DNA from: Candidatus Zhuqueibacterota bacterium
GTDB taxonomy: Bacteria; BS750m-G25
DNA length: 61,209 nt
Direction: 5' to 3'
Assembly (NCBI GenBank): GCA_016783505.1
Contig: JADHWK010000010.1
Span: forward strand, 1 to 61,209
Shown one piece after another: positions 7,491-33,894 of the stretch. Every line of letters begins with the position of its first letter. Position 1 is the first letter of the stretch. Below the pieces are notes generated by a model. That model was not told the origin of the DNA. It did not search any database and worked only from the letters and a program-made list of their open reading frames with translations. Both the position numbers and the translations under genes were made by a program.

Positions 7491-8197
7491 AGAGACACTC
7501 ACTACGGACAGTGGGGGTGATCCAGGCAAGAATGGGATCATCACGTCTTCCAGGTAAAATGATGGAGGATCTTTGCGGAGTTCCTCTTCTAACATGGGTG
7601 ATCGAAAGATGCAAAAGGGCATCGGCATTGGATGAGATTGTCATCGCTACGACCAACAACGCGGAAGATGATCGTTTAATCACCATTGCACAAGATCTTG
7701 GGGCAGAGGTTTTTCGGGGAAGCGAAAAGGATGTCTTGAGCCGGTTTGTTGTAGCGGCTGAGCAGCATAATGCTGAGATTGTTGTAAGGATTTGTGCAGA
7801 TAACCCTCTTGTTTCTCCTGAAGAAATTGATCGATTGTTTGAGTTTTATGTGATGAATTTGCCCGACTATGCATTTAATCATGTTCCGCGCTTGAATAAT
7901 AATTATCCCGATGGCCTTGGCGTTGAGATATTCTCGAAGGATTTCCTTAAAAGCATAAATAGTGTTGCGACTGATGCTAACTACCGCGAGCATGTTACGC
8001 TTTGGGTATGGGAGCATACTGACCAGGTAAACATTCAGACAATAAACTGTCCGAGTGCGTATGCGTACCCCGATGCAAAGTTGGATATAGATACCCCCGA
8101 TGACTTAATGAGAATGAGAACCCTATGCAGGCACTTGCGGTTTGATTCAAAGCCGGCTGAAATTTTGAGATGGTGGCGTTCTTTGAAGGAAATATAA
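7466..8197 (+). CDS. SpsF-like cytidylyltransferase (spore coat polysaccharide protein F family)
   Basis: IQARMGSSRLPGKMM, FRGSEKDVLSRF, VRICADNP, REHVT, LDIDTPDD; exact start uncertain. Confidence 0.88.
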   Translation: MLGGSFSVKRHSLRTVGVIQARMGSSRLPGKMMEDLCGVPLLTWVIERCKRASALDEIVIATTNNAEDDRLITIAQDLGAEVFRGSEKDVLSRFVVAAEQHNAEIVVRICADNPLVSPEEIDRLFEFYVMNLPDYAFNHVPRLNNNYPDGLGVEIFSKDFLKSINSVATDANYREHVTLWVWEHTDQVNIQTINCPSAYAYPDAKLDIDTPDDLMRMRTLCRHLRFDSKPAEILRWWRSLKEI

Positions 8198-14731: not shown

Positions 14732-16585
14732 ATGGATCCTCAAATAGAAGAGAAAAGTTTCTATAAATTATCTAAAGAAATCTTCAAAAATATTCCATAT
14801 AAACGAAGAAAACAGTTTTGGTTTATTTTGTGTGGAATGATATTTTGCGCTGGATTTGAAACTGTCACTCTCGGTGCGATAGCATTTTATGCATCCACCA
14901 TTAATGATCCCGGGGCGATATTAGAATCGACCTATATGAAACGGATTCAGGATATAACGGGTTTTACATTTATCAATGACGTTTCAGGCCTCATTATAAT
15001 TCTGAGTGTCGTTGTTATCATCTTGGTATTGATGAAGAACCTCATGCTTACTATGTTAAAATACGTTGTTGCAAAATATACCTTAATGATCAGCCGGCAT
15101 TTTGGAGAATTAATCTTAAATGGTTTTTTGAGGATGCCATATGAATGGCATCTCACACAAAATTCGGCAGATTTGGTACTGGCTGTGCAATGGTCAAGTT
15201 TTTTCGGTGCCTACTCACAACTGGTTCTGAATATAATAAGTGACGCGTTCCTTGTCACCCTTATGATTTCTGCAATAATCACCCTGGAACCTTTACCGTC
15301 ACTGATCGTTTTAGTATTTTTAGGAGGCACTTCAGTAATTATATTTTTTAACGTCAGAAAACTAATCGATAAAAGTGCCTTTCGTTGTGCATCTTCTGAA
15401 GAAGCTATGAATAGATATGCGACAAGATCTTTACACGGAATTAAAGACGTAAAAATATTTGGAAAAGAGATCCCCTTTTTAAAAGCTTTCAGTGATGAGA
15501 TGAAAACGTTTATAAGGATGAGTGCCATAAGAGATGCCATCATTGGTATACCCGCTTATTTATTGGAATCTGTTGGATTTCTTGCCATTACATCTTCGGT
15601 TTGTATAATGATATTTTTAACGAATAAATCAAGTCTCAATATTATGGGAACGATAACGCTACTTGTGGTCGCTGCCTGGAGGATTTTACCCGCGGTTAAA
15701 AGAATGCTGGGAAGCATCAATGTGATGAGATCTTATCTTCCCTATCTGGGGAAAGAATTTAAATATATCGATGAATTTGAGGGTCAACTACAAGAATATC
15801 AACTTAAAACGTTTCTAGAAAGAAGTGCAGGTTTGGGAAAAGTTTTCAAGGAGAATATATGTTTGAAGGAAGTTTATTTCTCTTATAATGGTTCCTTGTC
15901 TTTCGCTCTACAAGATATTGGGCTGACAATAAGAAAGGCGACAACGGTGGGCATTATCGGAGCCTCTGGGGGCGGTAAGAGTACGCTTGTTGACATTTTA
16001 ATAGGGATATTGGCTCCGACAAAAGGTAATGTTATTCTTGATGGAAAGGAAATGGATAAAAGTAGCCTTGCTGAATGGATAGATGCAGTTGGATACGTGC
16101 CACAGACCCCCTATATTTTTGATGGTACCTTAGCACAAAATGTCGCTTTTGGGCTAAGAGATAATGAGATTGAAAGGGAGAAAGTCATTGAATGTTGTCA
16201 AATGGCCGCCATTGATTATCTTGAAGATTTATACAACGGTATCGATTCCTTGATTGGAGAGAGGGGCGTGCGGTTATCCGGTGGACAAAGACAGAGAGTG
16301 GCCATTGCAAGGGCGCTTTATAAGAGTCCTGAAACAATCATCTTTGATGAAGCAACAAGTTCTCTTGACACAAAGAGTGAAAAAGAGATTCAGAAGACCA
16401 TATATAGCCTGAAAAGAAATCACACTCTGATCATTGTTGCTCATCGTTTGAGCACTGTGGAGGATTGCGATTACATCGTTTGGATGGAAAAAGGAAAAGT
16501 AAACAAAGTCGGTAATTCTAAGGATATATTAAGGGAATATTCAAAAGGGGACGATATAGATAATTCGGAATATGAAAATAAGTAA
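14732..16585 (+). CDS. ABC transporter permease/ATPase (MsbA/PglK-like glycan flippase)
   Basis: N-terminal TM helices; Walker A GASGGGKST; signature LSGGQRQR; Walker B IFDEATSSLD; AHRLST. Confidence 0.92.
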   Translation: MDPQIEEKSFYKLSKEIFKNIPYKRRKQFWFILCGMIFCAGFETVTLGAIAFYASTINDPGAILESTYMKRIQDITGFTFINDVSGLIIILSVVVIILVLMKNLMLTMLKYVVAKYTLMISRHFGELILNGFLRMPYEWHLTQNSADLVLAVQWSSFFGAYSQLVLNIISDAFLVTLMISAIITLEPLPSLIVLVFLGGTSVIIFFNVRKLIDKSAFRCASSEEAMNRYATRSLHGIKDVKIFGKEIPFLKAFSDEMKTFIRMSAIRDAIIGIPAYLLESVGFLAITSSVCIMIFLTNKSSLNIMGTITLLVVAAWRILPAVKRMLGSINVMRSYLPYLGKEFKYIDEFEGQLQEYQLKTFLERSAGLGKVFKENICLKEVYFSYNGSLSFALQDIGLTIRKATTVGIIGASGGGKSTLVDILIGILAPTKGNVILDGKEMDKSSLAEWIDAVGYVPQTPYIFDGTLAQNVAFGLRDNEIEREKVIECCQMAAIDYLEDLYNGIDSLIGERGVRLSGGQRQRVAIARALYKSPETIIFDEATSSLDTKSEKEIQKTIYSLKRNHTLIIVAHRLSTVEDCDYIVWMEKGKVNKVGNSKDILREYSKGDDIDNSEYENK

Positions 16586-16697
16586 ATAAGTAAATTGATT
16601 ATTGTCTTTTAAGGAAAAATGGTTGAAGGATTATTAGTATGAATTTTGTTGCGGTTAATATTCTTAGAAATTATTGAAGAATAAAGGATGCCTGTTC

Positions 16698-19067
16698 ATG
16701 ATTAATTTCAGCACAAAAGCTGGGACTTTAGAGGCTTTCAGGCCTCTTCTAAAAAAAAGCAAAATCTGTGAGAGTGTATATTTTACTGTAAATGAGTGGT
16801 CTAACAATTCTCATGAAATTATAAAAAGGATACAGCAAAGATTCTGTCACAGTAATATTATTGTGCGAAGCAGTACACTGAATGAGGATGGGGCTGATAC
16901 GTCCATGGCAGGGAGTTTCCATTCAAGTATGAACATTGATCCATCTTCCAAAAATGAAATAGAAGGTGCTGTAAATCAAGTGATCGAATCTTATGGGAAA
17001 TTGCGCTGTGATCATGATGAAGTCCTTGTTCAGCGCATGATTAATTCTGTCTCAATGAGTGGCGTGATATTTAGCCATGATCTGAATACAGGCGCTCCAT
17101 ATTACGTTGTTAATTATGACGATCTATCGGGAAAGACGGATACAATAACTTCTGGTAACGGTGATACAAGTCGAACCTTGTTAATTTATCGAACTCATAT
17201 ACGTGATCTACAATCTTCCCGGTTCAAGGGGCTTCTGGAAGCCGTTAGGGAAATCGAGGGGTTGTCTTCTTGTCCAGGGCTTGATATTGAATTTGCTGTC
17301 GCAAAAGATGAAACGATCTTCATTTTTCAAATTAGACGATTGGCAGTGCAGGAAAATTGGAATCGTAACATTTCTAATAAAATTGATACGTCACTCAAAG
17401 AAATAGCAGATTTTTTAGGGAATCGATTTCAAGCGAGGCACGGCATTTCAGGGCACATGTCCATCTTTGGCGAAATGCCTGACTGGAATCCTGCAGAAAT
17501 GATTGGCCCAGCACCCCGCCCCTTATCCCGTTCACTTTATGAAAAGCTAATTACGAACAGAATTTGGGCAGAGGCCAGGGCGGAGATGGGGTATCGTGAC
17601 TTGTCCGGAAGGCCTTTAATGGTTAATTTAGGTGGGCGTGTTTATATAGATGTCCGAGAAAGTTTCAACTCCTTTCTGCCCAGTGACCTTGATCCGAAGA
17701 TAGCAGAAAAACTGGTTTGCGCATGGCTTGAGCGATTGAAATCGAACCCTGAATTACATGATAAAATCGAGTTTGAGATTGCCATTACGGGTTATGCTTT
17801 TGATTTTGATCAAAAGATCTACCCTGTTTCTAATGTATTATCGGAGGGAGAAATTGAAAAATTCAAGAAATCACTCAAGAGATTCACTAACAATATTATT
17901 CTTGAAAAACGTGCAGGCATTCGCCAACAGTTAGATAGAATTGAGTATCTTGATAATAGCCGCAAAACGTTACTTAAAAAAAGCTCGCAGAACAACCAAA
18001 TTGAAATAGCAAGAGATTTATTAAATGATTGCAGGATATGGGGAACAAAACCCTTTTCCATTCTCGCCCGCGATGCGTTTATTGCGGAATCTTTTTTACG
18101 CTCCATGGAAGCCGTGAAAATTCTTAAGAGTAAGAGAATAAATTCATTTCGTAGATCAATAAATACAATACTGACGGAATTTTTGATTTCTATGGAAGCT
18201 TTACAAAAGAACGAAATTAAGAAGGAAGAATTTGTCGAGCGTTTCGGCCATTTACGTCCCGGAACTTATGATATTCTTGCAATAAGATATAGTAAACGTG
18301 AAAAGATGGAATCATTTGCTCCCGTTTCATTGGATGCTCATCAAGTTTCAAACCCCTTTGAGTTTTCAGATGTTGAAAAGGCATCGGTTAATCGAGTTCT
18401 GATTAATGAAGGTTTTGAGTTTGACAGCGATGTGCTGTTCGATTTTATTCGGAAAGCCATCTCGGGACGAGAATACTCAAAATTCATATTTTCACGTAAT
18501 ATTAGCGATGCACTTGAATTAATTGCAGAGTGGGGTGTGACAATCGGTTTGAATCGCGAGGAAATTTCTTTTCTTACAATTGATCAAATATTTCAAACTC
18601 TAACTCATACTTTTCATGAACCCATAGAGACTCGTTTACGAAATTTATCAGAGGAAGCGTTTAGGGAATATGAAATTACCCAGGCACTGCGTTTGCCCTA
18701 TCTGATTTCCAGGATAGAAGATATCTATATCGTTCCTTTACTTAAGAGCAGGCCCAACTTTATAACAAAAAAAAGGATGGAATGTCCTTTACATTATCTT
18801 TCAGGACATGAGATTCAATCATCTTGTCCTGATGGTCATATTATATTGACGGAGAGAGCTGATCCCGGACATGACTGGATATTTTTAAATCCAGTAGCAG
18901 GTTTGATTACTAAATATGGTGGTTCTAATTCCCATATGGCAATTAGATGTGCTGAATTGGGTATTCCTGCGGCAATTGGTTGTGGTGAACAATTATTTGA
19001 ATTGCTTCAACAGGCAAACAGGGTTCTGCTGGATTGTGGTTCTAAACTCGTTATCCCTATTCAATAG
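16698..19067 (+). CDS. PPDK/PEP-utilising fold kinase, L-glutamine kinase (Cj1418-like)
   Basis: IVRSS..ED..SMAG, VLVQRMI..SGVIF, LDIEFA..FQIR (ATP-grasp); MPDWNPAEMIG; GHLRPGTYDI; C-terminal phospho-His domain GGSNSHMAIRCAELGIPAAIGCG. Confidence 0.82.
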   Translation: MINFSTKAGTLEAFRPLLKKSKICESVYFTVNEWSNNSHEIIKRIQQRFCHSNIIVRSSTLNEDGADTSMAGSFHSSMNIDPSSKNEIEGAVNQVIESYGKLRCDHDEVLVQRMINSVSMSGVIFSHDLNTGAPYYVVNYDDLSGKTDTITSGNGDTSRTLLIYRTHIRDLQSSRFKGLLEAVREIEGLSSCPGLDIEFAVAKDETIFIFQIRRLAVQENWNRNISNKIDTSLKEIADFLGNRFQARHGISGHMSIFGEMPDWNPAEMIGPAPRPLSRSLYEKLITNRIWAEARAEMGYRDLSGRPLMVNLGGRVYIDVRESFNSFLPSDLDPKIAEKLVCAWLERLKSNPELHDKIEFEIAITGYAFDFDQKIYPVSNVLSEGEIEKFKKSLKRFTNNIILEKRAGIRQQLDRIEYLDNSRKTLLKKSSQNNQIEIARDLLNDCRIWGTKPFSILARDAFIAESFLRSMEAVKILKSKRINSFRRSINTILTEFLISMEALQKNEIKKEEFVERFGHLRPGTYDILAIRYSKREKMESFAPVSLDAHQVSNPFEFSDVEKASVNRVLINEGFEFDSDVLFDFIRKAISGREYSKFIFSRNISDALELIAEWGVTIGLNREEISFLTIDQIFQTLTHTFHEPIETRLRNLSEEAFREYEITQALRLPYLISRIEDIYIVPLLKSRPNFITKKRMECPLHYLSGHEIQSSCPDGHIILTERADPGHDWIFLNPVAGLITKYGGSNSHMAIRCAELGIPAAIGCGEQLFELLQQANRVLLDCGSKLVIPIQ

Positions 19068-19093
19068 CGAGGGATAATAATAAGGGGGCATTA

Positions 19094-19606
19094 ATGGTAC
19101 TCTGGTTAATTGGGCTTTCGGGTGCTGGTAAAACAACTCTGGCAGAGGAAATTGTGTCTTTAGCAAGAAAGGATGTTTCTAACGTTGCATTGATAGATGG
19201 TGATATTATACGTGAATTATTTAGCAATGATCTTGGACACTCGCTTGAAGACCGCAAAAAAAATGCGGATAGAATTTGTCGTCTTTGTAAATTCATGGAT
19301 GATCAACAAATCCACGTTGTATGCGCTATTCTTTCTCTATTTCCAGAATCAAGGGAATGGAATCGAGAAAATATAAGAAACTATTTTGAGGTTTTTATTG
19401 ATGCTCCTTTTGAACACCTTGTTGAAAGAGATTACAAAGGTTTGTATCATAAAGCTCTCAACAATGAAATTAAGGATGTTGCTGGTATGGATATAGAATT
19501 TGCCCAACCAACAAGTTCAGATCTGATTATCAAAAACGATGAAGGGAAAGAAAAATTATTATCATTTGCCCCTATGCTTGCTAACAAAATAATTGGAGAA
19601 AATTAG
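19094..19606 (+). CDS. Adenylylsulfate-kinase-like protein (Cj1415-like cytidine diphosphoramidate kinase candidate)
   Basis: WLIGLSGAGKTT, DGDIIR, RDYKGLY; directly follows the glutamine-kinase-like gene. Confidence 0.85.
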   Translation: MVLWLIGLSGAGKTTLAEEIVSLARKDVSNVALIDGDIIRELFSNDLGHSLEDRKKNADRICRLCKFMDDQQIHVVCAILSLFPESREWNRENIRNYFEVFIDAPFEHLVERDYKGLYHKALNNEIKDVAGMDIEFAQPTSSDLIIKNDEGKEKLLSFAPMLANKIIGEN

Positions 19607-19607
19607 A

Positions 19608-20375
19608 ATGAACTATTCTTACAGTAACGAGAATCGAATAGTTTCACCATGTACCTATATGTATACTCCTTATGAAGGAATATCACTGTTAGAAAGTTAT
19701 TCATCAAACCGTGGTATTTTCCTTAACAAAGGCAGAGAGATAATTCGTAACACGGTTGAAATTGATGCAATGATCAAGGAAATCTTGAATTGTGGAATAA
19801 ATGAATATCTCCAGATTGCAAAAAAAGAGGGTGATGAAAAAGTATCGGACGGATTATCAGGAATTATTAAAGACCATGCATGGCTTGCCGATAATTTTTT
19901 ATTACAAAAAGGCAACTCAGGATTATCCCGAAAAAAGGAAATATTGGAGTCATTTTCTCCTGATAGAAAAGTAGAGACGATGAGTCTCTTGATTTCCTTA
20001 TTTAGCAATATCCTGAGTAATTTAAAACATTCGCCTTTAGTGAAAATGTGGATGGACAGGTTAGTGCAGCGTTTTGAGGTGACAAAAAAGCTTTACGAAA
20101 GATACAAACCAGGATTTCGAAAAGGGGAAGGAAAGAGCGAGCGCCTCATTTTATATGCGCTATTTGCAATGATTTTATCTATTTACTATTATAAAAACAA
20201 GAACTTGAAATACTTGAACGCATTATTGAAAATCAATGACACGCTTATTTCTGTAATTGTTAAATTAGCAGACGTTTACCCCGCAATTTTCATGGCATAC
20301 TTATCGGCATCATGCGAAGACTGTTTTGTCGGAAAGTTAGTAAAAAGCAAGGGGATAATGGATGCCACTATCTGA
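19608..20375 (+). CDS. Hypothetical protein
   Basis: Long ORF with GGAGA RBS before ATG 19608; YMYT, RFEVTKKLY, YLNALLKINDTL segments; overlaps the next gene. Confidence 0.7.
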   Translation: MNYSYSNENRIVSPCTYMYTPYEGISLLESYSSNRGIFLNKGREIIRNTVEIDAMIKEILNCGINEYLQIAKKEGDEKVSDGLSGIIKDHAWLADNFLLQKGNSGLSRKKEILESFSPDRKVETMSLLISLFSNILSNLKHSPLVKMWMDRLVQRFEVTKKLYERYKPGFRKGEGKSERLILYALFAMILSIYYYKNKNLKYLNALLKINDTLISVIVKLADVYPAIFMAYLSASCEDCFVGKLVKSKGIMDATI

Positions 20376-21102
20376 TATAGGGATGATCATAGCGGATACA
20401 CCAAGGTCTAAAACTTATGTGCAGGCTCTTGTGCAAAATAAACTGGTACCAAATCTTGTCCTTATAATGAAAAGTGAATTAAATGACATGTTACCCGGTC
20501 AAACGGCGGATGGAATAGCTGACAGCGTTCATGTTATTCCAGATCAATTCTCGAAGGTTGGTTTTGTGTTTAAGCCTTCTGAAGCCCTTGAGGACACACT
20601 GACACAATCTGGAATTCCTTTTCAGTATGTACCCTCTGTTGATATCAACAGTGATGAGGTAATATTCGCCATACAAGAAAGGTCAGAAACTGTATTTATT
20701 TATTCTGGATTTGGCGGTGCCATTCTAAGAAACAAAATTTTGAGCATTGACAAAAAATTTCTCCATATTCATGGTGGATATTTGCCCGATTACAAGGGGA
20801 GTACAACGAACTATTATAGCTTGATTAATGAAAATGAATGTGGGGCGTCATCAATTTTCATGGAGGAGGAAATTGATAGTGGTCCTATATTAATTCGCAG
20901 ACGATTTTCACCGCCTGAAGATCGCAGAGAAATAGACTATATTTATGATTCGATATTTCGAGCTAAAGTTCTTGTTGAGACAATTCAGAAGTTTAGTATA
21001 GATGGTAGATGGCATTTCGAAGTTCCAAATAACTCTGGCGGGGAAACCTATTTCATTATTCATCCTGTTTTAAAACATATTGCAATCCTTTCTAACACAT
21101 AG
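20362..21102 (+). CDS. Formyltransferase-fold protein (Fmt/PurN N-domain-like)
   Basis: LHIHGGYLPDYKGST and EEIDSGPI resemble the NxHPxxLPxxRG and D.GPI motifs. Confidence 0.75.
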   Translation: MPLSDIGMIIADTPRSKTYVQALVQNKLVPNLVLIMKSELNDMLPGQTADGIADSVHVIPDQFSKVGFVFKPSEALEDTLTQSGIPFQYVPSVDINSDEVIFAIQERSETVFIYSGFGGAILRNKILSIDKKFLHIHGGYLPDYKGSTTNYYSLINENECGASSIFMEEEIDSGPILIRRRFSPPEDRREIDYIYDSIFRAKVLVETIQKFSIDGRWHFEVPNNSGGETYFIIHPVLKHIAILSNT

Positions 21103-21130
21103 GATTGTTTGGTGAATTTACCTCTTCTTA

Positions 21131-21928
21131 ATGAGAATCACATACAGAACGCAACATGTAAAACAATATTGGACTAAACGCTGGGATGATATTCCCGCTG
21201 ATGCTCCAATGGAAAATGCTGATGTATATCCGCTAAAATACGCGGAGCTTACTGTCAGATCTAATGATGGTAGAATCTTAGAAGCTGGGTGCGGAGCTGG
21301 GCGAATCCTTCGATATTACAAGAATAGGGGCTATGACATTGTTGGGATAGATTTCATCAAAGGTGCTGTGGAAAAATTAAAAGGCATTGACCCTGAGTTG
21401 AATGTTGAAGTGGGTGATATAACTCGCTTAAGGTTTGAAGAAAATTCCTTTAAATATGTACTTTCATTTGGCTTATATCATAATTTAGAGCATGGACTCG
21501 ACAAGGCAATACGTGAAACATATCGCGTCCTTCAGCCAGGGGGGGGGGTGTGTGCCTCATTCAGGGCAGACAATATTCAAACAAGATTAACTGACTGGTT
21601 GGCTGATCATCGCAGAAAAAAGCAAGCGGGGAGCGCACATGCTACTGAATTTCACAAAAGGAATCTAAAACGATCAGAGTTTGTTGATGTATTCAATCGT
21701 GCTGGTTTCAAAGTTGAAAAAGTTTATCATGTAGAAAATATGCCCATATTTTATAAATTTAGATTTTTCCGATCACAGGGCCACAAGATTTTCAATGAAA
21801 ACATGGCCAGAAAAGAAGGATACAGATTATCTCCTTTAGGCAACACAATTCAAAAGATCCTTATCCGTTATTTCCCCGACCAGTTTTGCAATATTTATGT
21901 CGCGATTGCTCGAAAGCCAGAAAGGTAA
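21131..21928 (+). CDS. Class I SAM-dependent methyltransferase
   Basis: ILEAGCGAGR, GIDF, GDIT.L.F, RVLQPGG. Confidence 0.88.
   Translation: MRITYRTQHVKQYWTKRWDDIPADAPMENADVYPLKYAELTVRSNDGRILEAGCGAGRILRYYKNRGYDIVGIDFIKGAVEKLKGIDPELNVEVGDITRLRFEENSFKYVLSFGLYHNLEHGLDKAIRETYRVLQPGGGVCASFRADNIQTRLTDWLADHRRKKQAGSAHATEFHKRNLKRSEFVDVFNRAGFKVEKVYHVENMPIFYKFRFFRSQGHKIFNENMARKEGYRLSPLGNTIQKILIRYFPDQFCNIYVAIARKPER
21539..21548 (+). repeat. G10 homopolymer tract, currently in frame, inside the methyltransferase
   Basis: CCA GGG GGG GGG GTG: ten consecutive G in an AT-rich gene. Confidence 0.9.
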
Positions 21929-21937
21929 TACTGTACG

Positions 21938-22627
21938 GTGTCGTTACTCATAGGGATAACCCAGCGAGTCAGTGTAGTTCCTGAGTACGGAGAACGTCGT
22001 GATGCGTTAGACCAGGCTTGGGTTGGTTTTTTTTCGGCATGCAATTTAGATCCCTTGATAATCCCCAACAGGCTCGCTGATCCTGTTGCGTATGCCCAAA
22101 AGATGGGAGTAAAAGGAATTGTTTTAACAGGCGGTAATAATTTTTCTGATGCCGTAAAGACAATACAAAACTTGCCCGTGCGCAATTTACCGCAAAGCGA
22201 TGATCTGGCGCCAGAGAGAGATGCAACAGAAATTGCTCTTTTGAAACAAAGTATTGAAAAAGGATGGCCTGTAATTGGTGTTTGTAGAGGAATGCAATTA
22301 TTAAATCTCTTTTACGGAGGGGAAATAGGCTCTGTCGAAAACCATGTTGGATTATATCATGATCTAACAACCAAAGAGAAAATAGGAATTCCATTTGAAG
22401 TTATGTTTGATAATCCGGTGAATTCATTCCATGATTTTGGAATTCATTCAAGTGGTATGAGTCCTGAGTTTAATATATTGGCACAGACAGGTGATGTGGT
22501 TGAGTCCTTTGTTCATCGAGAATATCCACATATGGGGATAATGTGGCATCCGGAGCGAAATGTTAATCCGTCTGTTAATGATGTTAATCTATTTCGTAAT
22601 TATTTTGCATGCTGGATTAAAGAATGA
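21938..22627 (+). CDS. Peptidase C26/class I glutamine amidotransferase (Cj1417-like gamma-glutamyl-CDP-amidate hydrolase)
   Basis: IGITQRV, ERRDALDQAW, LTGGN, ERD..E, GVCRGMQ (nucleophile Cys), NSFH, WHPER. Confidence 0.88.
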   Translation: MSLLIGITQRVSVVPEYGERRDALDQAWVGFFSACNLDPLIIPNRLADPVAYAQKMGVKGIVLTGGNNFSDAVKTIQNLPVRNLPQSDDLAPERDATEIALLKQSIEKGWPVIGVCRGMQLLNLFYGGEIGSVENHVGLYHDLTTKEKIGIPFEVMFDNPVNSFHDFGIHSSGMSPEFNILAQTGDVVESFVHREYPHMGIMWHPERNVNPSVNDVNLFRNYFACWIKE

Positions 22628-23385
22628 CAAAAGTTATCATTTTGGCGGCTGGTGAAGGTACCCGTCTTCATCCCTATACTTTGGATTGCCCTAAATGTTT
22701 GGTGAAAGTAGGCGGTAAAAGCTTGCTGGATTATCAACTCGCTGTTTTGAAAAGTCAAGGCATTGAACACATTGTTCTCATTAAAGGATATCTTTCTGAT
22801 ACATTGCATAGACCCGGCGTAATGACTTATTGCAACGAAAGGTACGCTGACACAAATATGGTCTGGACACTCTTTTGTGCTGAAGAGGAAATGACAGGCA
22901 ATGTGATCGTATCCTATGGCGATATTGCCTATTCAAAAGAAGTTCTAATTGAATTGATGAAATCTTCACAAAATATCTCTGTTGTTGTCGATAGGGGGTG
23001 GAAAACATATTGGGAGACTCGATTTGATAATCCATTGGATGATGCCGAAACGTTGAAAATTGGACATGACGGAAGGATTGTAGAAATTGGTCAAACCCCC
23101 AACAGTTTAGACGAAATTGAAGGGCAGTACATAGGTTTAATGAAATTTTCTGAAAAAGGTTTGTCTTCGCTTAAAGAGTTATTCAAGAAGTCGAAATCCG
23201 CTGGAATGTTAGGCACAAAAGGACCAGAAAAAGCGTATATGACAGATTTGCTGCAGGCAGCTATAGATAAAGGATACGATGTCTGGCCCGTTTTTATTGA
23301 GGGAGATTGGGTGGAAGTCGATACAGTCAATGATTTGAATTTGGAAATTACAAGGCAACGCTTGGAAAAAATATCCCGGATGTAA
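22624..23385 (+). CDS. LicC-like nucleotidyltransferase (Cj1416-like phosphoglutamine cytidylyltransferase candidate)
   Basis: IILAAGEGTRL, PKCL, TNMVWTL, SYGDI, DDAETL, GQYIGLMKFS, WVEVDT. Confidence 0.85.
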   Translation: MTKVIILAAGEGTRLHPYTLDCPKCLVKVGGKSLLDYQLAVLKSQGIEHIVLIKGYLSDTLHRPGVMTYCNERYADTNMVWTLFCAEEEMTGNVIVSYGDIAYSKEVLIELMKSSQNISVVVDRGWKTYWETRFDNPLDDAETLKIGHDGRIVEIGQTPNSLDEIEGQYIGLMKFSEKGLSSLKELFKKSKSAGMLGTKGPEKAYMTDLLQAAIDKGYDVWPVFIEGDWVEVDTVNDLNLEITRQRLEKISRM

Positions 23386-23527
23386 GTATAGGGCGAAAAG
23401 CCAGCCGATAATGAATAACTGGATTTTTTTGTAGATCAGAATTGTCCGATTAGGTTTTTGCATAATTCAAGAGCAATTGTGTAAATTTTTAAATCGAAAA
23501 AATGAAATTGGATTAAATGTGGGAAAT

Positions 23528-24721
23528 ATGAAAATTGACAGTATTCCGGTTGTATTTTTATTAGGTGTGGGAAGGTGTGGGGGTGATTTAACAAGGGGAA
23601 TTCTGGATTGGCATGATCAAGTGCTTATTATTCCTATTTCAAACAAGTTTTACCCTACATGGAAAAGTTATAAATGTGATTATATTGATGATCCTGACAA
23701 AATAGCGGATATTTTCTTAAACAATTCGAAGTTATCTTGGTTCAAAGAAAATAAGTTTATTCATAGCTATAGCCAGTTTGAATATGATTTTTCTGATGTT
23801 AATTGGAAGATATTTAATACCTCATTTCACGAATATTTGCATAAGCACAAATTATGTGCACGTAATGTATATTATGGTATTTTTTATGCTTATGCATGTG
23901 CCTGTAATAAAAGAATTGAGAAGGTTCGTGTAATCATTGCAGATGCCTTTTATGATAATTATATGTCAGAAATATTGAATGATTTTTCCGATGCGAGATT
24001 CATACATATCGTAAGGGATCATAGGGCTAATATCTCCTCACTCAAATCTTTCTTCTTGACTATGTACGGAACCCTTGTCTATCCTGGAAAAGGATTGAAG
24101 TTTGGCAGATCACTTTTTATACATATTATCAATGATTATATGGTTAAAGTAATGCGAATGCTCCATGATAACAAGAAAACAATGAGTGCTGATTATCTAA
24201 GAGTGATACGTTTTGAAGATATAAAACTAAATCCTAAATCAACGATAGAAGGCCTTGCTGGCTGGTTAGGTATTGATTTTAATGAGTGTTTAATGAAACT
24301 GACTAAAGTTGGAAAATTGGTACATGGAAATAGCAGTTTTTATGACCAGCCTGTTGAAGGATTCACCATTGAACCTGTATACAGATGGAAGAAACATTTG
24401 CGTTGTTACGAAATTAGAATGATTGAGTTCATTTTTGGTCAGAGCATGCTTAATCTCGACTATAAACCTGTTTATAGTCGGAATCCGGTCTCTAAATTAA
24501 TCGGATTTATCTGTTGTTTTATGCCATGGAAAGGCGAAATATTTTATATGGGGTATATGAAAAAGGCTCATGCACTCTCAAAATTTAAGCGTTTTTTAAG
24601 ATGTTATGTGATACCTTTTTATTATTTCCCTAGAAACATTTTGATGTTTTTCATTAGCAGAGCATTTTTTTTAAAGCTTTTCATCAAAGGTTATTTAAAA
24701 GTGGTTCCTCATGAGAAGTAG
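23528..24721 (+). CDS. Sulfotransferase-fold protein
   Basis: FLLGVGRCGG (5'-PSB-like loop), FIHIVRDHRANISS (3'-PB-like), IRFEDIKLNP, RWKKHL. Confidence 0.72.
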   Translation: MKIDSIPVVFLLGVGRCGGDLTRGILDWHDQVLIIPISNKFYPTWKSYKCDYIDDPDKIADIFLNNSKLSWFKENKFIHSYSQFEYDFSDVNWKIFNTSFHEYLHKHKLCARNVYYGIFYAYACACNKRIEKVRVIIADAFYDNYMSEILNDFSDARFIHIVRDHRANISSLKSFFLTMYGTLVYPGKGLKFGRSLFIHIINDYMVKVMRMLHDNKKTMSADYLRVIRFEDIKLNPKSTIEGLAGWLGIDFNECLMKLTKVGKLVHGNSSFYDQPVEGFTIEPVYRWKKHLRCYEIRMIEFIFGQSMLNLDYKPVYSRNPVSKLIGFICCFMPWKGEIFYMGYMKKAHALSKFKRFLRCYVIPFYYFPRNILMFFISRAFFLKLFIKGYLKVVPHEK

Positions 24722-25098
24722 AAAATCCAGCATCCAGGAAAGTCCCGAAGGAAAATAACAGAAAGAAAGTCTACTTTTTGACACTGCAAATGATCTCTGC
24801 CATCGTACCCTATAGATAACAAGGCCCACCAACATGAAATACCCCAATTTACCACTCAAATTCAGAAAAAACCACGAACTTGGGTTAACCGGTTGATTCC
24901 ATGCGTTTTGGGGCTTTATTTGCAGGATATCATTGCGAAGTCGAAGTTTGAAGCAAGAATAGTATCAAATAAAGCGGTTAATGGATGTAATTCACAAGTC
25001 GCAGGAATTGGCGATAGGAAGCTAAGTCCAATAGCAAATAAAAACAATAGTAATATACTTTAACTGATTAATTTATTCAGGCTTGAAGAACTATAAAA

Positions 25099-26148
25099 TT
25101 GAATATAAGCAACTTGGAAGAAAACAAAAAGGACTTTATATCTGCAGCTATAATAGGATGCGGTAATATTGCTAGTGGTCTAGATGATGATGTCAAAAAG
25201 CGGCATATTTACAGTCACGCAAAAGCCATTAGTTTTGTTAAAGCCATTAGATTAGTTGCCTGTTGCGATATAGATGAAAGCCGGCTTTTAGATTTCAGTG
25301 AAAAATGGCATGTTCCCAGAGCATATATTACTTTAGAGAAAATGCTTGGTGAGGAAAAAATTGATATTTTGATAATAGCGACGCCAGCTAAGTGCCACCA
25401 CGATAACCTTCTTACGGCATTAACGAGTGAAGTGGAGGTGATATTTTGCGAGAAGCCCTTTGTCCTTGATTTTGAATTGGGAATGAAGATTGTAAAAAAC
25501 GAAAGGGAAAGAGATAAACTGATTACTGTAAACTACATGAGGCGGTGGGATAAATTTTACGCTGAATGCAAGCGTATTTTGGAGACTGGACAGCTTGGAC
25601 GGATCGAAACGATTGTCGGGTATGTGGATACTGCATTATACATGAACTCCATCCACATGCTGGACATGCTTGCCTATTTTGGCGGAGATGTGTTGTCCTG
25701 TACAGGGTATTTGGATAAGACATCAGAACCCAGAATTGTCCATGGAAAACCCGATGTTGGAGGTATCGCGCTTTTCAGACATAAAAACGGGGTCACCAGT
25801 TTTTTCAAAGGGACAGGGGAAAGCCGGCGGAACCACTTCTTTGAACTTGACATCCAGTGCACAAAGGGCCGGATGCGGATCCTAAACGACGACGAAAAAT
25901 ATGAGATATACAGATTTGACGAGAGCCCGCAGCATACAGGACTTGTTGAGTTAAAGCTGACGGAAACAAAGTATAATGCTGATCAGGATGAACGGGTGGT
26001 GAATGTGTACCGTGAAATTGTTGACTACCTGAAAACTGGCAGACTGCCCTCCTATACCGCTAAAGACGCCCTGAAATCCCTGGAAATGGTTAATATGATC
26101 TATGAATCAGACGCTCTTGATCATCAACTGATTTTTTCAAGACTTTGA
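25099..26148 (+). CDS. Gfo/Idh/MocA family NAD(P)-dependent oxidoreductase
   Basis: IIGCGNIA, IATP, FCEKP, VNYMRRW, IHMLD. Confidence 0.9.
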   Translation: MNISNLEENKKDFISAAIIGCGNIASGLDDDVKKRHIYSHAKAISFVKAIRLVACCDIDESRLLDFSEKWHVPRAYITLEKMLGEEKIDILIIATPAKCHHDNLLTALTSEVEVIFCEKPFVLDFELGMKIVKNERERDKLITVNYMRRWDKFYAECKRILETGQLGRIETIVGYVDTALYMNSIHMLDMLAYFGGDVLSCTGYLDKTSEPRIVHGKPDVGGIALFRHKNGVTSFFKGTGESRRNHFFELDIQCTKGRMRILNDDEKYEIYRFDESPQHTGLVELKLTETKYNADQDERVVNVYREIVDYLKTGRLPSYTAKDALKSLEMVNMIYESDALDHQLIFSRL

Positions 26149-28763: not shown

Positions 28764-29480
28764 GTGGAAGATATACACATCGGATGTATCTGCGCTAACG
28801 ATAGCCCATTTGTAGGAAGAATCATAGGAGCGCTTTTGAGTAGTGGCCTAAGCGTCGATACAATCATCTTTGATTCGAAGAATTTTGGAATACATGGATT
28901 ACAGCTATTTGAGGAAAGAACAGGGGGCAAAATGCCTTTGATTTCTATTGATGAGTTTGATGAATACAAGATACCATGTTTCTTTGTTAAAAATTTCAAT
29001 TCATCTGTTGCAATAAGCATTGTAAGGTCATTTAATCTCGATATTCTGATTAATGCCGGAACAGCAAGAATTCTTAGAAAAGACATCATCAATGCTCCAA
29101 AGATTGGAGTATTAAATTGTCATCCCGGACTATTGCCCGATTTTCGAGGATGTACATGCGTGGAATGGGCCGTATTCCTGGATGAAAGGATTGGGAACAC
29201 CGTTCATTTCATGAATGAAAGGATTGATGAAGGCCCGATTATTCTCAAAGAGGCGCTATGTTTTTCAAAAAATGACCTCTATCCTGATGTACGTACAAAA
29301 GTACTTCTGGATGGTATCCAATTAATTGCCAAAGCTGTACGTAAAATCTTAAAAGAGAATGTTACGCCCACTACATTAGCTAAGCAAGGAACAGGTCGAT
29401 ATTTTGATGTTATCGATGATAATAAAATGATATGCGTGATAGATAAACTAAAAAGGGGTAAATATAGGTATCAATTATGA
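28764..29480 (+). CDS. Formyltransferase (N10-formyl-THF-dependent) family protein
   Basis: LNCHPGLLPDFRG, TVHFMNERIDEGPII. Confidence 0.85.
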   Translation: MEDIHIGCICANDSPFVGRIIGALLSSGLSVDTIIFDSKNFGIHGLQLFEERTGGKMPLISIDEFDEYKIPCFFVKNFNSSVAISIVRSFNLDILINAGTARILRKDIINAPKIGVLNCHPGLLPDFRGCTCVEWAVFLDERIGNTVHFMNERIDEGPIILKEALCFSKNDLYPDVRTKVLLDGIQLIAKAVRKILKENVTPTTLAKQGTGRYFDVIDDNKMICVIDKLKRGKYRYQL

Positions 29481-31582
29481 TGGAACGTGGCAATATGATT
29501 CACGTATGGGTTGAACGATTAACTTCTTTCGGAATTATTAAGCTATATTGTGATCTAAGGAAGTACGATGATATTATCATCTTTTATCATAGGCTCTCAA
29601 GAGTTGCTGGTTTGTTTGCTGTCTTACTTGAAAACGGAAGTGTTAGCTCCAGAAGAATCGTTTTTAGAAAGATAGATTATGAATATTTTGCAAAGGACGC
29701 CCATGGGAGGGCGTTAATATATAAAGTAGAGCAGGGAGCTGCGATTCTTGCAGAACGGTTTTTTGGTGAATATTTGGCTCAGATGGAATGGTTGCCTGAT
29801 GGATATGACGAGTACAAAGATGAGTGGAAACGGATAGTTAAGTCATCACTCACAATGGTAGCTCGAGAGTCCTTGAAGTATTTGTTTATTATTGCAAATA
29901 TGTATGACACACATCAGATTGACAGATCAGGTATAAAGCAGATCATCATATATTTAAACCAGTCTGTTGTATCCCGGTTTATGGAACGCTTCTTCCAAAT
30001 ACCAATCAATATCCCATCTTCAATTCGGACTATTCCTAATTATAAGTATAATTTGATGTTTTACCCTATTCCTGGAAAACTCATCCAATTATTCTTTCAG
30101 ATTTTCATTGGATGCATGAAAAATGGAAAAAACCTTCATTATATATCAGAACAGGCCGTGAAAAATGGCGTCTTTATTGAAGAGTATCATCGTAGCATAT
30201 TCAGCCGTTATCCACTGGCAGGGCATTTATTCTGGTTTTCAGAAAGCAATTTGCCGCCTGAAAGGGTAATATTGTATTTTGATCGACCGGATTCGCCTTG
30301 TGATACTAAAGCGAGGCAAGAGGTTGAGTCATACGGGTTTGGCTGGTTGGATATGGACAATCCATGGCGGCATGTTAGATCGCCAGTGAGAATTTTGTCG
30401 AGCTGCTTTTTCAATGTGAGAAAATCCTTTCTCAAAAGCCGGATGGAAATTAGTATATGGCTGTGGGTTTTCTTGTTTTATCACAGCCTGCTTCTGGAGT
30501 GTTTTCGCGAGATTTATCGGACATACAATGTAAAGATGATGCATCAGCATCAGGAGTGGTGGCCGAGTTCCCTGGTCAGGGCCCTTGCCATCCGGATGGA
30601 AGGTGGAAAATCTGTCTGGTTTTTTTGGTCAGTTACTCAATATCCGTTTGGCTATTTCAATTCAGGTTTTGCGGATCTCGTTCTTTCCTGGGGGCCGTTG
30701 AATGATGGATTCATTAACGCTCATGATTTTTCCTACAGATACCTGGTAAGAATCGGTCGAATTGCCGCTGACGGATTTGATGATGAAGTAAGGCGTGATG
30801 CCCGTGCCATTCGAAAGCGATTCTCCCCTGATACATCCTTTGTCATCACTATTTTTGACAGTTCGCACAGCAATGATCCTGGCTTTCATCAATCGACAGC
30901 CTCCATGTTGACGTTTTATGACAACTTGCTCTCGTCTGCTCAACAAAGAAGTCACTGGGGCATTTTGATTAAGTCCAAGGGAGACTTTTTTAACCGATTG
31001 CCCCTCTCACACAGATTCTACAGTGCTTTTGAGCAGCTTACCGCCCAGGGCAGATGCATATTGCTGGATGGCCAAAACCTGGTGTCTCGGGCCGCCTTTG
31101 CCGGTGATGTTGCTGTGTGCTATAACATTAACTCAGCCGGTGTGCTGGCCGCTCTGTGTAACAAACCGGTCCTTCACTGGGATATTTGCGGGGCATTGGA
31201 TCATCCCCTTTATCAGGCAGGCGGTGAGGGCGGGATTATTTTTAAGACCTACGACGAGGTCTTGAATGCGCTGCTGAGGATTGAAGAGGGCGATAGCGTT
31301 TGTGGAAACCACGATCAATGGCTGGGGCTTGTGGATGAATTTCGGGATGAGATGGGAAATCAGCGGGCCGCCGAACTGATCGACGGATATATGATGCGGC
31401 GCGACCAGGGGATGGATCAAAACACGGCCCTTAGAAAATCAGTGGAGGCGTTCTCACGAAGATGGGGCCAGGATAAGGTTTCAACAATGGACTGTGTTCA
31501 ACCGCATTTGGGAAATGATCTGTGGCTCAAAGTGATAGAGAAAGCATCACAATCCGTTGAACAACGCCTCAGTCACCGTTGA
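29477..31582 (+). CDS. Large hypothetical surface-carbohydrate biosynthesis protein (putative transferase)
   Basis: 701-aa ORF coupled to its neighbours; C-terminal GT-B-like features (SWG, IFDSS, LIKSK, SAG..AAL..KP). Confidence 0.6.
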   Translation: MMERGNMIHVWVERLTSFGIIKLYCDLRKYDDIIIFYHRLSRVAGLFAVLLENGSVSSRRIVFRKIDYEYFAKDAHGRALIYKVEQGAAILAERFFGEYLAQMEWLPDGYDEYKDEWKRIVKSSLTMVARESLKYLFIIANMYDTHQIDRSGIKQIIIYLNQSVVSRFMERFFQIPINIPSSIRTIPNYKYNLMFYPIPGKLIQLFFQIFIGCMKNGKNLHYISEQAVKNGVFIEEYHRSIFSRYPLAGHLFWFSESNLPPERVILYFDRPDSPCDTKARQEVESYGFGWLDMDNPWRHVRSPVRILSSCFFNVRKSFLKSRMEISIWLWVFLFYHSLLLECFREIYRTYNVKMMHQHQEWWPSSLVRALAIRMEGGKSVWFFWSVTQYPFGYFNSGFADLVLSWGPLNDGFINAHDFSYRYLVRIGRIAADGFDDEVRRDARAIRKRFSPDTSFVITIFDSSHSNDPGFHQSTASMLTFYDNLLSSAQQRSHWGILIKSKGDFFNRLPLSHRFYSAFEQLTAQGRCILLDGQNLVSRAAFAGDVAVCYNINSAGVLAALCNKPVLHWDICGALDHPLYQAGGEGGIIFKTYDEVLNALLRIEEGDSVCGNHDQWLGLVDEFRDEMGNQRAAELIDGYMMRRDQGMDQNTALRKSVEAFSRRWGQDKVSTMDCVQPHLGNDLWLKVIEKASQSVEQRLSHR

Positions 31583-31614
31583 CAGGTGATAAACCGGGAA
31601 ATCTTGGATCGGGT

Positions 31615-33894
31615 ATGAACATAGATAAGGACATCAAAAAATATATTGTTTTTTCGGAAGATTCCCTGCTGCATGGCCTGGAAAAGATCAGCAAGAACAA
31701 AAGGCAGATTGTTTTCGGTGTCAGTGAAGCAGGGGTAATGGAAGGGGTGCTGTCAGACGGGGATTTTCGCAGGTGGGTGGTAGATCAAAAGGATTTCGAT
31801 ATCCAAATCTCTATCTCACGCATACTGAAAAAGGATTTTGTCTATTGCAGGGAGACGGATTCTCCCGAGACAATGGAGGCCCACTTTTTTCAAGGTATAG
31901 CCTATATCCCGATCCTGGATGATCAGAATCGGCTGATAGCGGTGGCCACCAGAGAAGATCCGAAAATATGTGTTGGGGACTGGACCATCAGTGATGAAAG
32001 CCCATGTTTTGTTATTGCTGAAATTGGAAATAACTATAACGGCGGTTTTGAGAAAGCAAAAGACCTGGTTGATGCGGCCCTTTGGGCCGGGGCCTCGTGC
32101 GCCAAATTCCAGATGAGAAGTATGGAAAGCCTGTACCGGCAGGCAGGGTTTGAAACAAATCACAGAGAGGATTTAGGGACCGAGTATGTGCTTGACCTGC
32201 TGAACAGGTTTCAATTGAGCGACGACGATATGTTTCGCATCTTTGACTATTGCAGGGAAAAGGGGATTCTGCCGCTGTGTACGCCATACGACATGGAAAG
32301 CCTGAAAAAGCTTGAAGGCTATGGCATGGAGGCCTTCAAGCTTGCATCTGCCGATCTGACCAACCATGAAATGATAGAGACCATGGCTCAGACCCGAAAC
32401 CCCCTTTTCTGCTCTGTGGGTATGTCAACGGATGAGGAGATTGTGCTGGCGGTGGATCTTCTTAAAAAGCATGGGGCCCAATATGTCCTGATGCAGTGCA
32501 ATTCCACCTACCCGCCGCCCTTTAAAGACATCAACCTCAACTATATGCGCACACTGAAACGATATGGCCATTGCCCGGTGGGCTACTCAGGGCATGAGCG
32601 CGGAATAAGTGTAGCGATTGCAGCGGTGGCAATGGGCGCCAAAGTTTTGGAAAAGCATCTAACCCTGGATAAAGGCATGGAAGGTAATGACCATAAGATC
32701 AGTTTGCTGCCTGAAGAATTCAAGGCCATGGTCCAGGGTATTCGCGAAGTCGAACAGGCGTTTGGAGAGGAAAAAACCCGTCGTATTTCCCAGGGAGAGC
32801 TGATTGTTCGGGAGGGCCTGGCGAAAAGCCTTGTTGCCTCTATGGAAATTAGGAGGGGCGATGTCATAACCGAGGAGGGAATCAGCATTCGCTCCCCAGG
32901 CAAAGGACTTCCTCCGTATCGAAAAAAGGAGTTAATCGGGAAAACCGCCAAGCGGGATTTCAAAGAAGGCGATTTCTTTCACTTGTCGGACCTCCAAATG
33001 GACACTGTCAAGCCGAGGGATTACAAGTTCGAAAGAGAATGGGGGATCCCAGTTCGCTTCCATGATTTCAAAGCCATATATGAGAAGTCAAACATGAAAC
33101 TGGTGGAGTTTCATCTCAGTTATAAGGATCTGGAATTGTCGCTTGACGAGTATCTTACCGAAATTTATCCTATCAACTTCATAGTGCATGCGCCTGAGTT
33201 GTTTGCGCATGATCATATATTGGATTTGTGCACTAGGGATGAGGATTACCGGCGCAGATCAATTGATGAACTTCAAAAGGTCATCAGGAAGACGCTGGAA
33301 GTGAAGCGCTATTTCCCAAAAACAGAGAAGCCTTTGATTGTCGTCAATGCCGGCGGTTTTACCATGAACCATCACATATCGCCTTCGGAAAGAAAGCAGC
33401 TTTATGAATTTTTTGTTTATAGCCGCCATGAACTGGATATGAACGGCGTTGAAATTATCCCTCAGACCATGCCACCTTTTCCCTGGCATTTCGGTGGACA
33501 AAGATATCACAATCTTTTTGTTGATCCCCATGAAATAGCTGAAATCTGTAGAGAAAATGAAATGAAAATATGTCTCGATATTTCCCATTCAAAATTAGCA
33601 TGTAATTTTTATAAATGGTCATTAAGGGAATTTATTGAGATCGTTGCCCCCTTTGTAGTTCATATTCATCTTGCTGACGCCGCAGGGCTTGACGGTGAAG
33701 GATTGCAGATTGAAGAGGGAGAGCTAAACTTTAGAAACCTGATGGATGATCTTAACAGATGGATCCCGGATGCCTCATTCATACCGGAAATTTGGCAGGG
33801 GCATAAGGACAGAGGTGCGGGATTTTGGAAGGCTTTAGATCGATTAGAGAAGTATGAACCCGATGAACCCGTCTTAAAGCGAAATATGGTATAA
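31615..33894 (+). CDS. Multidomain NeuB-family synthase: CBS pair + NeuB + SAF + xylose-isomerase-like TIM barrel
   Basis: GVLSDGDFRR (CBS); IAEIGNN, AKFQMR, GYSGHERG, EKHLTLD (NeuB); SPGKGL (SAF); EFHLS, HAPE, CLDISHS, HLADA, PEIWQGH (TIM barrel). Confidence 0.88.
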   Translation: MNIDKDIKKYIVFSEDSLLHGLEKISKNKRQIVFGVSEAGVMEGVLSDGDFRRWVVDQKDFDIQISISRILKKDFVYCRETDSPETMEAHFFQGIAYIPILDDQNRLIAVATREDPKICVGDWTISDESPCFVIAEIGNNYNGGFEKAKDLVDAALWAGASCAKFQMRSMESLYRQAGFETNHREDLGTEYVLDLLNRFQLSDDDMFRIFDYCREKGILPLCTPYDMESLKKLEGYGMEAFKLASADLTNHEMIETMAQTRNPLFCSVGMSTDEEIVLAVDLLKKHGAQYVLMQCNSTYPPPFKDINLNYMRTLKRYGHCPVGYSGHERGISVAIAAVAMGAKVLEKHLTLDKGMEGNDHKISLLPEEFKAMVQGIREVEQAFGEEKTRRISQGELIVREGLAKSLVASMEIRRGDVITEEGISIRSPGKGLPPYRKKELIGKTAKRDFKEGDFFHLSDLQMDTVKPRDYKFEREWGIPVRFHDFKAIYEKSNMKLVEFHLSYKDLELSLDEYLTEIYPINFIVHAPELFAHDHILDLCTRDEDYRRRSIDELQKVIRKTLEVKRYFPKTEKPLIVVNAGGFTMNHHISPSERKQLYEFFVYSRHELDMNGVEIIPQTMPPFPWHFGGQRYHNLFVDPHEIAEICRENEMKICLDISHSKLACNFYKWSLREFIEIVAPFVVHIHLADAAGLDGEGLQIEEGELNFRNLMDDLNRWIPDASFIPEIWQGHKDRGAGFWKALDRLEKYEPDEPVLKRNMV

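Follow-up and report, generated by a model that had tools for sequence, protein, structure and literature searches.

The window analysed here, a stretch of 61,209 nucleotides from a Candidatus Zhuqueibacterota bacterium (contig JADHWK010000010.1, forward strand), is a 61-kb glycan-biosynthesis island with nearly all of its long open reading frames (ORFs) on the + strand. The island encodes two NeuB homologues, several cytidylyltransferases of the cytidine monophosphate-sugar synthetase type, DegT aminotransferases, epimerases, methyltransferases, a B12-radical S-adenosylmethionine (SAM) enzyme and an ABC exporter. Positions 16674-24721 form a tight same-strand (+) unit of eight genes, arranged in the order glutamine kinase, 3'-kinase, helical protein, formyltransferase-like protein, methyltransferase, amidohydrolase, cytidylyltransferase and sulfotransferase-fold protein (Table 1). 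Four of these match Cj1418, Cj1415, Cj1417 and Cj1416 of Campylobacter jejuni family for family, the functions of the latter being taken from the literature as cited in PMC6429109. The last gene of the cassette, encoding the sulfotransferase-fold protein referred to below as the target, is the subject of this report. The genes upstream of it overlap or are separated by gaps of 29 bp or less, a gap of 143 bp then precedes the target ORF, and 378 bp are free downstream. A promoter and terminator scan of positions 16000-26000 found sites no more frequent than in shuffled sequences.

The target matches the Pfam family Sulfotransfer_3 (PF13469) over residues 7-253 with an E-value of 1.6e-12 and 48.6 bits against a cut-off of 27, covering the full length of the model (1-216), and no NCBIfam family matches at E <= 0.001. 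The AlphaFold2 model, calculated from a 60-sequence alignment, is very confident (mean predicted local distance difference test score, pLDDT, 94.7), and structural searches with Foldseek and VIA-align return exclusively sulfotransferases dependent on 3'-phosphoadenosine 5'-phosphosulfate (PAPS), aligned over residues 1-317. The closest of these are OLS (PDB code 4gox; Z 18.6, root mean square deviation 3.8 over 247 residues), CurM (PDB code 4gbm; Z 18.2) and the tyrosylprotein sulfotransferases TPST1/2 (Z 16.3-17.0). Residues from about 318 to 397 form an extra helical tail, and no membrane span is predicted, there being no 19-residue window with a mean Kyte-Doolittle hydropathy of 1.6 or more. 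A sequence-only reading of the window had described a sulfotransferase-fold gene directly after a phosphoramidate cassette, with a phosphosulfate-binding loop altered to RCGG, and both observations hold. The 5'-phosphosulfate-binding loop reads GVGRCGGDL, with GRCGG at residues 16-20, so that R-C-G-G-D stands in place of [KR]-S-G-[ST]-[ST], which we take to be the canonical motif and which agrees with the alignments made here. The 3'-phosphate motif R-x(7)-S is kept (R163-D-H-R-A-N-I-S-S171), with R163 nearly invariant in the 60-sequence alignment. In P36-I-S38, Ser-38 occupies by alignment the position of the Glu base in the P-x-E motif of OLS, CurM and TPST. Taken against the CurM/OLS and tyrosylprotein types (PDB codes 4gbm, 4gox, 3ap1 and 5wrj), the target therefore shares the fold (profile match E 2.7e-23), the loop arginine and the 3'-phosphate-binding R...S motif, and differs in the loop, in the residue at the base position, in the additional 80 helical C-terminal residues and in the placement of its gene, which lies in a phosphoramidate-donor operon and not beside sat/cysC.

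The features that set the target apart are shared by its nearest relatives. A profile search of 1.84 billion representatives retrieves 9508 proteins at E <= 1e-3, of which 46 reach E <= 1e-30. The Thr/Ser pair of the loop is missing from all eight of the N-terminally complete representatives closest to the target, which have Ser, Thr or Asn at the base position, whereas 58 of the 88 sequences at ranks 61-153 combine the pair with Glu or Asp at that position, the loop of these distant relatives reading [KR]SGT[TS]. Across a five-sequence alignment of 37-53% identity there is no variation in the loop arginine, the 3'-phosphate motif or 43 further columns. Close relatives are confined to metagenome protein sets. 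Fusions among the 150 best representatives join the sulfotransferase domain to a GNAT domain (P0011), an adenosine 5'-phosphosulfate (APS)-kinase-like domain (P0037), a CysQ-like domain (P0119) and a TPR domain (P0056), none of them to a main-clade cassette enzyme, and a search of relatives of 721-2055 amino acids for fused forms found none.

The association of sulfotransferase-fold genes with glutamine-kinase genes was examined in two samples, each with DegT aminotransferase genes as control loci. For the first sample, a scan with the kinase of the window returned 20 loci, which span at least seven phyla; L009 and L028 were dropped as too short, and PF13469 and PF00685 were tabulated genome-wide in the 18 remaining genomes. 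A sulfotransferase-fold match lies within 10 kb of the kinase in seven of the 18 loci (L010, L011, L013, L014, L016, L023 and L024), compared with one of 42 DegT loci (53 DegT genes of the same genomes less 11 within 30 kb of a kinase; one-sided Fisher p 5e-4). The second sample was chosen independently of the window and comprises 14 loci from 13 new kinase-positive genomes found among 401 evenly drawn Pseudomonadota; PF13469 alone was scored, and one DegT control near a kinase was dropped to leave 80. Here a match lies within 10 kb in 9 of the 14 kinase loci and 4 of the 80 controls (p 1e-6), rising to p 8e-5 if the kinase loci are credited only with matches that pass the Pfam cut-off. Pooled, the figures are 16/32 kinase loci and 5/122 DegT loci (Fisher p 3e-9). 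The co-occurrence check proposed in the sequence-only reading is therefore positive for sulfotransferase-fold genes in general, and the link of these genes to the phosphoramidate-donor cassette is real and strong.

The cassette-adjacent sulfotransferases of other genomes resemble the target in being divergent. They score 20-53 bits on PF13469, compared with 100-180 bits for the remaining sulfotransferases of those genomes. In a midpoint-rooted FastTree tree of 136 representatives and 14 cassette-adjacent domains, in which the support of the deep split was not read, 11 domains from seven Pseudomonadota loci group with P0068 on the 'GRxG' side that holds the clade of the target, apart from the large [PRH]KSGT[TS] clade. 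Loci L010, L014, L086, L090, L091 and L093-L096 are close parallels, with low-scoring Sulfotransfer_3 members beside the same donor genes and most of these on the 'GRxG' side. However, their proteins are only about 22-30% identical to the target or its relatives, differ in the loop, and in many cases are ORFs of 550-800 amino acids with extra regions or tandem domains. One of these loci (L093, 2691-6197) has a single open frame of 1169 amino acids with two tandem sulfotransferase domains adjoining the cassette kinase. All cassette-adjacent sulfotransferases keep the R...S motif, and loss of the 3'-phosphate motif was not seen at loci with no kinase nearby; in three of the four such 'kinase-less' loci a cassette-type kinase is found elsewhere in the genome. 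In G072 (L091 and L106) and in G148 (L094 and L105) the pathway is divided between two contigs: one carries the sulfotransferase abutting the glutamine kinase, and the other the genes for the cytidylyltransferase, kinase and hydrolase. G001 was found to have a single sulfotransferase-fold gene and a single APS-kinase-like gene, both belonging to the cassette.

The transferases of the Campylobacter pathway, Cj1421 and Cj1422, are described in PMC5808241 as a conserved N-terminal region, a membrane span and the domain DUF2972 (PF11186). The statement of the sequence-only reading that no such transferase is recognisable in the window extends to the whole host genome, in which neither PF11186 nor the NCBIfam model of these transferases, NF058596, has a match at E <= 0.1 and PF11186 still has none when the threshold is relaxed to E <= 10, these models being without a positive-control match. 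With the same reservation on the model, PF11186 has no match in ten other glutamine-kinase genomes or in any of the 401 evenly drawn Pseudomonadota. Pfam scans of ten sulfotransferases (E <= 10), the protein atlas and 14 genomes (E <= 10) likewise gave no DUF2972 signal. Glutamine kinase is present in 14 of the 401 Pseudomonadota and DUF2972 in none, and therefore some other transferase must exist. Like the target, Cj1421 and Cj1422 are encoded beside the cj1415-cj1418 genes and a methyltransferase, and by analogy the target may have the same role, the transfer of (methyl)phosphoramidate from an activated cytidine nucleotide onto a glycan hydroxyl. Unlike the target, they are proteins of 592-603 amino acids with a membrane span, and no sequence relation between the two was detected.

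The remaining cassette genes and the adjoining exporter are collected in Table 1. The 3'-kinase belongs to a clade of glutamine-kinase-adjacent kinases (support 0.985 in a 48-sequence tree) and has the motif VAGMDIEF where the CysC of the same genome has FTGISDPYE. Homologues of the C26 amidohydrolase are encoded by 17 ORFs of the first locus set, after the kinase gene. Homologues of the ABC exporter (E <= 6e-49) are present in six loci (L011, L013, L016, L017, L018 and L025), with weaker matches in L085, L087 and L097. The helical and formyltransferase-like proteins recur as a pair beside the cassette in L012, L014, L015, L027 and L095; in the archaeal locus L027 they are fused in one ORF of 522 amino acids, and in L095 the helical part shares a stop-to-stop frame with the kinase. 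A modification of the phosphoramidate nitrogen or of an amino sugar is a possible role of the pair. The helical protein was also considered as a rival transferase and set aside, as it has no family, no PDB relative and a low-confidence all-helical model, with nothing pointing to transferase activity.

Table 1. Genes of the phosphoramidate cassette and the adjoining exporter, with positions in the window
Feature	Position	Strand	Evidence and remarks
ABC exporter, fused membrane and ATPase domains, just upstream of the cassette	14732..16585	+	Recurs beside the cassette
L-Glutamine kinase homologue (Cj1418 type), first cassette gene	16674..19067	+	PPDK_N and PEP-utilizers domains; NF004508 880.2 bits, cut-off 501
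APS-kinase-like kinase, cassette type (Cj1415-like, presumed cytidine diphosphate (CDP)-amidate 3'-kinase)	19094..19606	+	PF01583, 123 bits
All-helical protein, 260 amino acids, without known family	19593..20375	+	No PDB relative; AlphaFold2 pLDDT 56
Formyltransferase-like protein	20362..21102	+	Asn96, His137 and Asp172 invariant in a 5-sequence alignment
Class I SAM methyltransferase, candidate for the O-methyl group	21131..21928	+	Methyltransf_11/25; close homologue in L011, E 4.6e-81
Peptidase C26 / class I amidotransferase, Cj1417-like gamma-glutamyl-CDP-amidate hydrolase	21938..22627	+	Best NCBIfam model NF045546, 102 bits, under the cut-off of 250
Nucleotidyltransferase, Cj1416-like cytidine triphosphate:phosphoglutamine cytidylyltransferase	22624..23385	+	Family match; homology to Cj1416
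Target, sulfotransferase-fold protein, 397 amino acids, last cassette gene	23528..24721	+	ATG at 23528 to stop; alternative TTG at 23477 gives 414 amino acids

Further along the island, positions 29477-31582 encode a protein of 701 amino acids without a Pfam family, which the protein atlas places near clusters of the PFTS, LIC12162 and Capsule_synth types; a comparison with the Capsule_synth protein of L012 showed no similarity. This ORF is followed at 31579-33894 by a fusion of 771 amino acids that combines CBS, NeuB and SAF domains with a xylose-isomerase-like barrel.

3'-Phospho-CDP-amidate is a structural analogue of PAPS, the sulfotransferase donor. From this analogy and from the genomic context the donor, acceptor and chemistry of the target are inferred, and the best single reading, held with about even confidence, is that the target transfers phosphoramidate from 3'-phospho-CDP-amidate. 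The four donor enzymes, by homology to Cj1418, Cj1416, Cj1417 and Cj1415, would make 3'-phospho-cytidine-5'-diphosphoramidate, in which cytidine and phosphoramidate take the places of the adenosine and sulfate of PAPS. The target would bind this compound in the way that sulfotransferases bind PAPS, with the nucleotide held by the 3'-phosphate motif (Arg-163 and Ser-171) and the loop arginine (Arg-16). The terminal phosphoramidate would then be moved to a hydroxyl of the nonulosonic-acid-rich glycan of the window with release of cytidine 3',5'-bisphosphate, and the methyltransferase of the cassette would add the O-methyl group. A wider proposal, to which slightly less than an even chance is given, is that the divergent 'GRxG' branch of Sulfotransfer_3 consists of widespread phosphoramidate transferases that use 3'-phospho-CDP-amidate exactly as sulfotransferases use PAPS.

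A serious rival, plausible although short of probable, is that the target is an ordinary PAPS-dependent glycan O-sulfotransferase and that the glycan carries both sulfate and phosphoramidate. All solved structural relatives of the target are PAPS enzymes, and the organism can probably make PAPS, judging from its gene content. The sequence-only reading was correct that the window has no ATP sulfurylase, the only PF01747 match of the genome being on contig C87. There Sat (344 bits) lies 2 kb from a canonical CysC (211 bits), a kinase that groups with canonical CysC in the 48-sequence tree. The host assembly (2.5 Mb, 59.9% complete) is the sole genome of its phylum in the collection, and within it searches with PF13469, PF00685 and our own profiles found no second sulfotransferase-fold gene, which makes the target the only visible PAPS consumer and provides the main argument for sulfation. 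On C87 (60600-66100, corresponding to L006 5627-11081) two genes of the PF01663 phosphodiesterase family are interspersed with Sat and CysC, beside proteins with type IX secretion system (T9SS) tails, and no PAPS consumer is evident there; T9SS-type sorting domains are encoded in the host genome. An attempt to exclude PAPS at the genome level failed, with Sat or CysD present in four of five genomes tested (G003 has neither) and CysC-type kinases in most. Under the sulfation reading, attachment of the phosphoramidate would fall to a different, unrecognised product of the island, such as that of one of the family-less ORFs 8170-9945 and 41760-43472, that of the PFTS/LIC12162-like ORF 29477-31582 or the helical and formyltransferase-like pair, and the window does contain three ORFs of 570-701 amino acids without an assigned function. 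Several observations in other genomes also weigh against phosphoramidate transfer. In L013 and L016 the sulfotransferase stands beside ATP sulfurylase and a second kinase, with the sulfation genes interleaved with the cassette, and sulfation and phosphoramidation probably coexist at these loci. The two cassette-adjacent sulfotransferases of G020 coexist with a canonical CysC only. P0037 and P0119 are fused to the APS-kinase-like and CysQ-like domains noted above. The kinase domain of P0037, with a canonical-type ..G.T.PYE motif, is placed outside the main clade of cassette kinases; it is sister to the kinase that adjoins the glutamine kinase of L026 (support 0.85), so that this point can be read either way. 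The loops of cassette-adjacent sulfotransferases are diverse (GRSGS, ARGGTG, TRSGSH and PGSGSS), and for that reason RCGG is no cassette signature. The loop had been taken as a pointer to phosphoramidate, an argument that loses force with this diversity and with P0037, the loop of which (GHCGID) deviates as much as that of the target. Half of the kinase loci (16/32) have no sulfotransferase within 10 kb, and the loci are phylogenetically non-independent, several being from Rhodospirillales and L091 and L094 having a near-identical arrangement, so that the evidence is at most as strong as the p-values suggest. Pattern scans with the alignment of the target subfamily found nothing in genome or viral contigs and one metagenome contig (L008), in which the homologous gene lies 115 bp from the contig end and gives no view of a neighbourhood. 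Set against sulfation are the enrichment beside glutamine-kinase genes, which greatly exceeds that at other glycan loci, and the scarcity of ATP sulfurylase, which is found in three of the 32 kinase loci (L013, L016 and L027), only two of these also having a sulfotransferase (2 of the 16 sulfotransferase-positive loci of other genomes). G001 has no detected APS-kinase-like gene except that of the cassette, the sulfotransferase stays with the glutamine kinase where the pathway is split, and the clade of the target lacks the loop TT and the Glu base that are both kept in most of the distant relatives. What stands of the earlier proposal that phosphoramidate and not sulfate is transferred is its support from the enrichment and from the missing DUF2972; Sat and CysC on C87 count against it, as does the failure of RCGG to mark the cassette.

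Two further explanations concern how the protein would act if it does not complete the decoration. It is improbable that the target uses the cassette nucleotide without being the final glycan transferase, loading instead a carrier, lipid or protein or acting on an intermediate before methylation or formylation, with another enzyme finishing the modification. The three extra cassette genes of unclear role (helical, formyltransferase-like and methyltransferase) would find a place in such a scheme, the substrates of the closest structural relatives (CurM, OLS and the TPSTs) are carrier-bound acyl chains or proteins rather than sugars, and in some loci the sulfotransferase is present as two or three paralogues or as a tandem of two domains; however, no carrier gene is visible in the cassette and the surrounding 60 kb is devoted to glycan biosynthesis throughout. 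Less probable still is a catalytically dead sulfotransferase-fold protein kept as a binding or scaffolding subunit. The alignment shows Ser for the Glu base and loss of the two Thr/Ser residues of the loop, as would be expected of such a protein, but the substitutions are the same in all eight of the closest representatives, pointing to selection and not decay, and the invariance of the loop arginine, the 3'-phosphate motif and the further columns at such modest identity, together with the confidence of the model, also speaks for a working enzyme.

Other proteins compete with the target as candidates for phosphoramidate transfer, and these likewise count against assigning the step to the sulfotransferase fold. 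A cytoplasmic sulfatase-family (PF00884) protein of 569-603 amino acids follows the cytidylyltransferase in six loci (L011, L013, L016, L017, L018 and L025), immediately in four of them and at a distance of at least one gene in L011 and L013, and a relative of 399 amino acids lies upstream in L027. This protein has no membrane span or signal peptide, has an FTQ motif in place of CxPxR and is found in loci of the Alphaproteobacteria type; it is a second, unrelated phosphoramidate-transferase candidate. A Capsule_synth-type protein is present in L012 and L015. The best match to the cassette-associated sulfatase family in the host genome is a membrane-anchored sulfatase-domain protein of 722 amino acids with an EptA/LtaS-like layout, encoded on contig C51 (44660-46825, - strand), far from the cassette. 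As a separate observation on ATP sulfurylase, a single protein in L013 (3756-5972), L016 (13359-15536) and L104 combines a pyruvate-kinase barrel, a PUA domain and ATP sulfurylase. The APS-kinase-like genes that come next form a clade of their own (motif LIGY..P/VY), and these arrangements lie in or near glutamine-kinase loci.

The final step of decoration with methyl-phosphoramidate is not known to have been reconstituted, and in 2025 the group that worked out the donor pathway still named the decoration steps as future work (PMC12409886). A search of the literature for a link between sulfotransferases and phosphoramidate transfer found no paper proposing one. What is added here is a controlled enrichment test and a very divergent family member from a phylum with a single genome. 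The Campylobacter transferases combine a membrane span with a family of unknown fold, and the target, with 397 amino acids, no predicted span and a confident model, would lend itself readily to testing. If phosphoramidate transfer by the target is correct, the sulfotransferase fold would gain phosphoryl-type instead of sulfuryl transfer and a cytidine instead of an adenosine donor, and the 3'-phosphorylation of the donor by a dedicated 3'-kinase would have a rationale. The annotation 'sulfotransferase' beside glutamine-kinase genes would then be wrong in many phyla, and, if the reading of the 'GRxG' branch is also true, glycans with P-N decorations would occur in many phyla that have no Campylobacter-type transferase.

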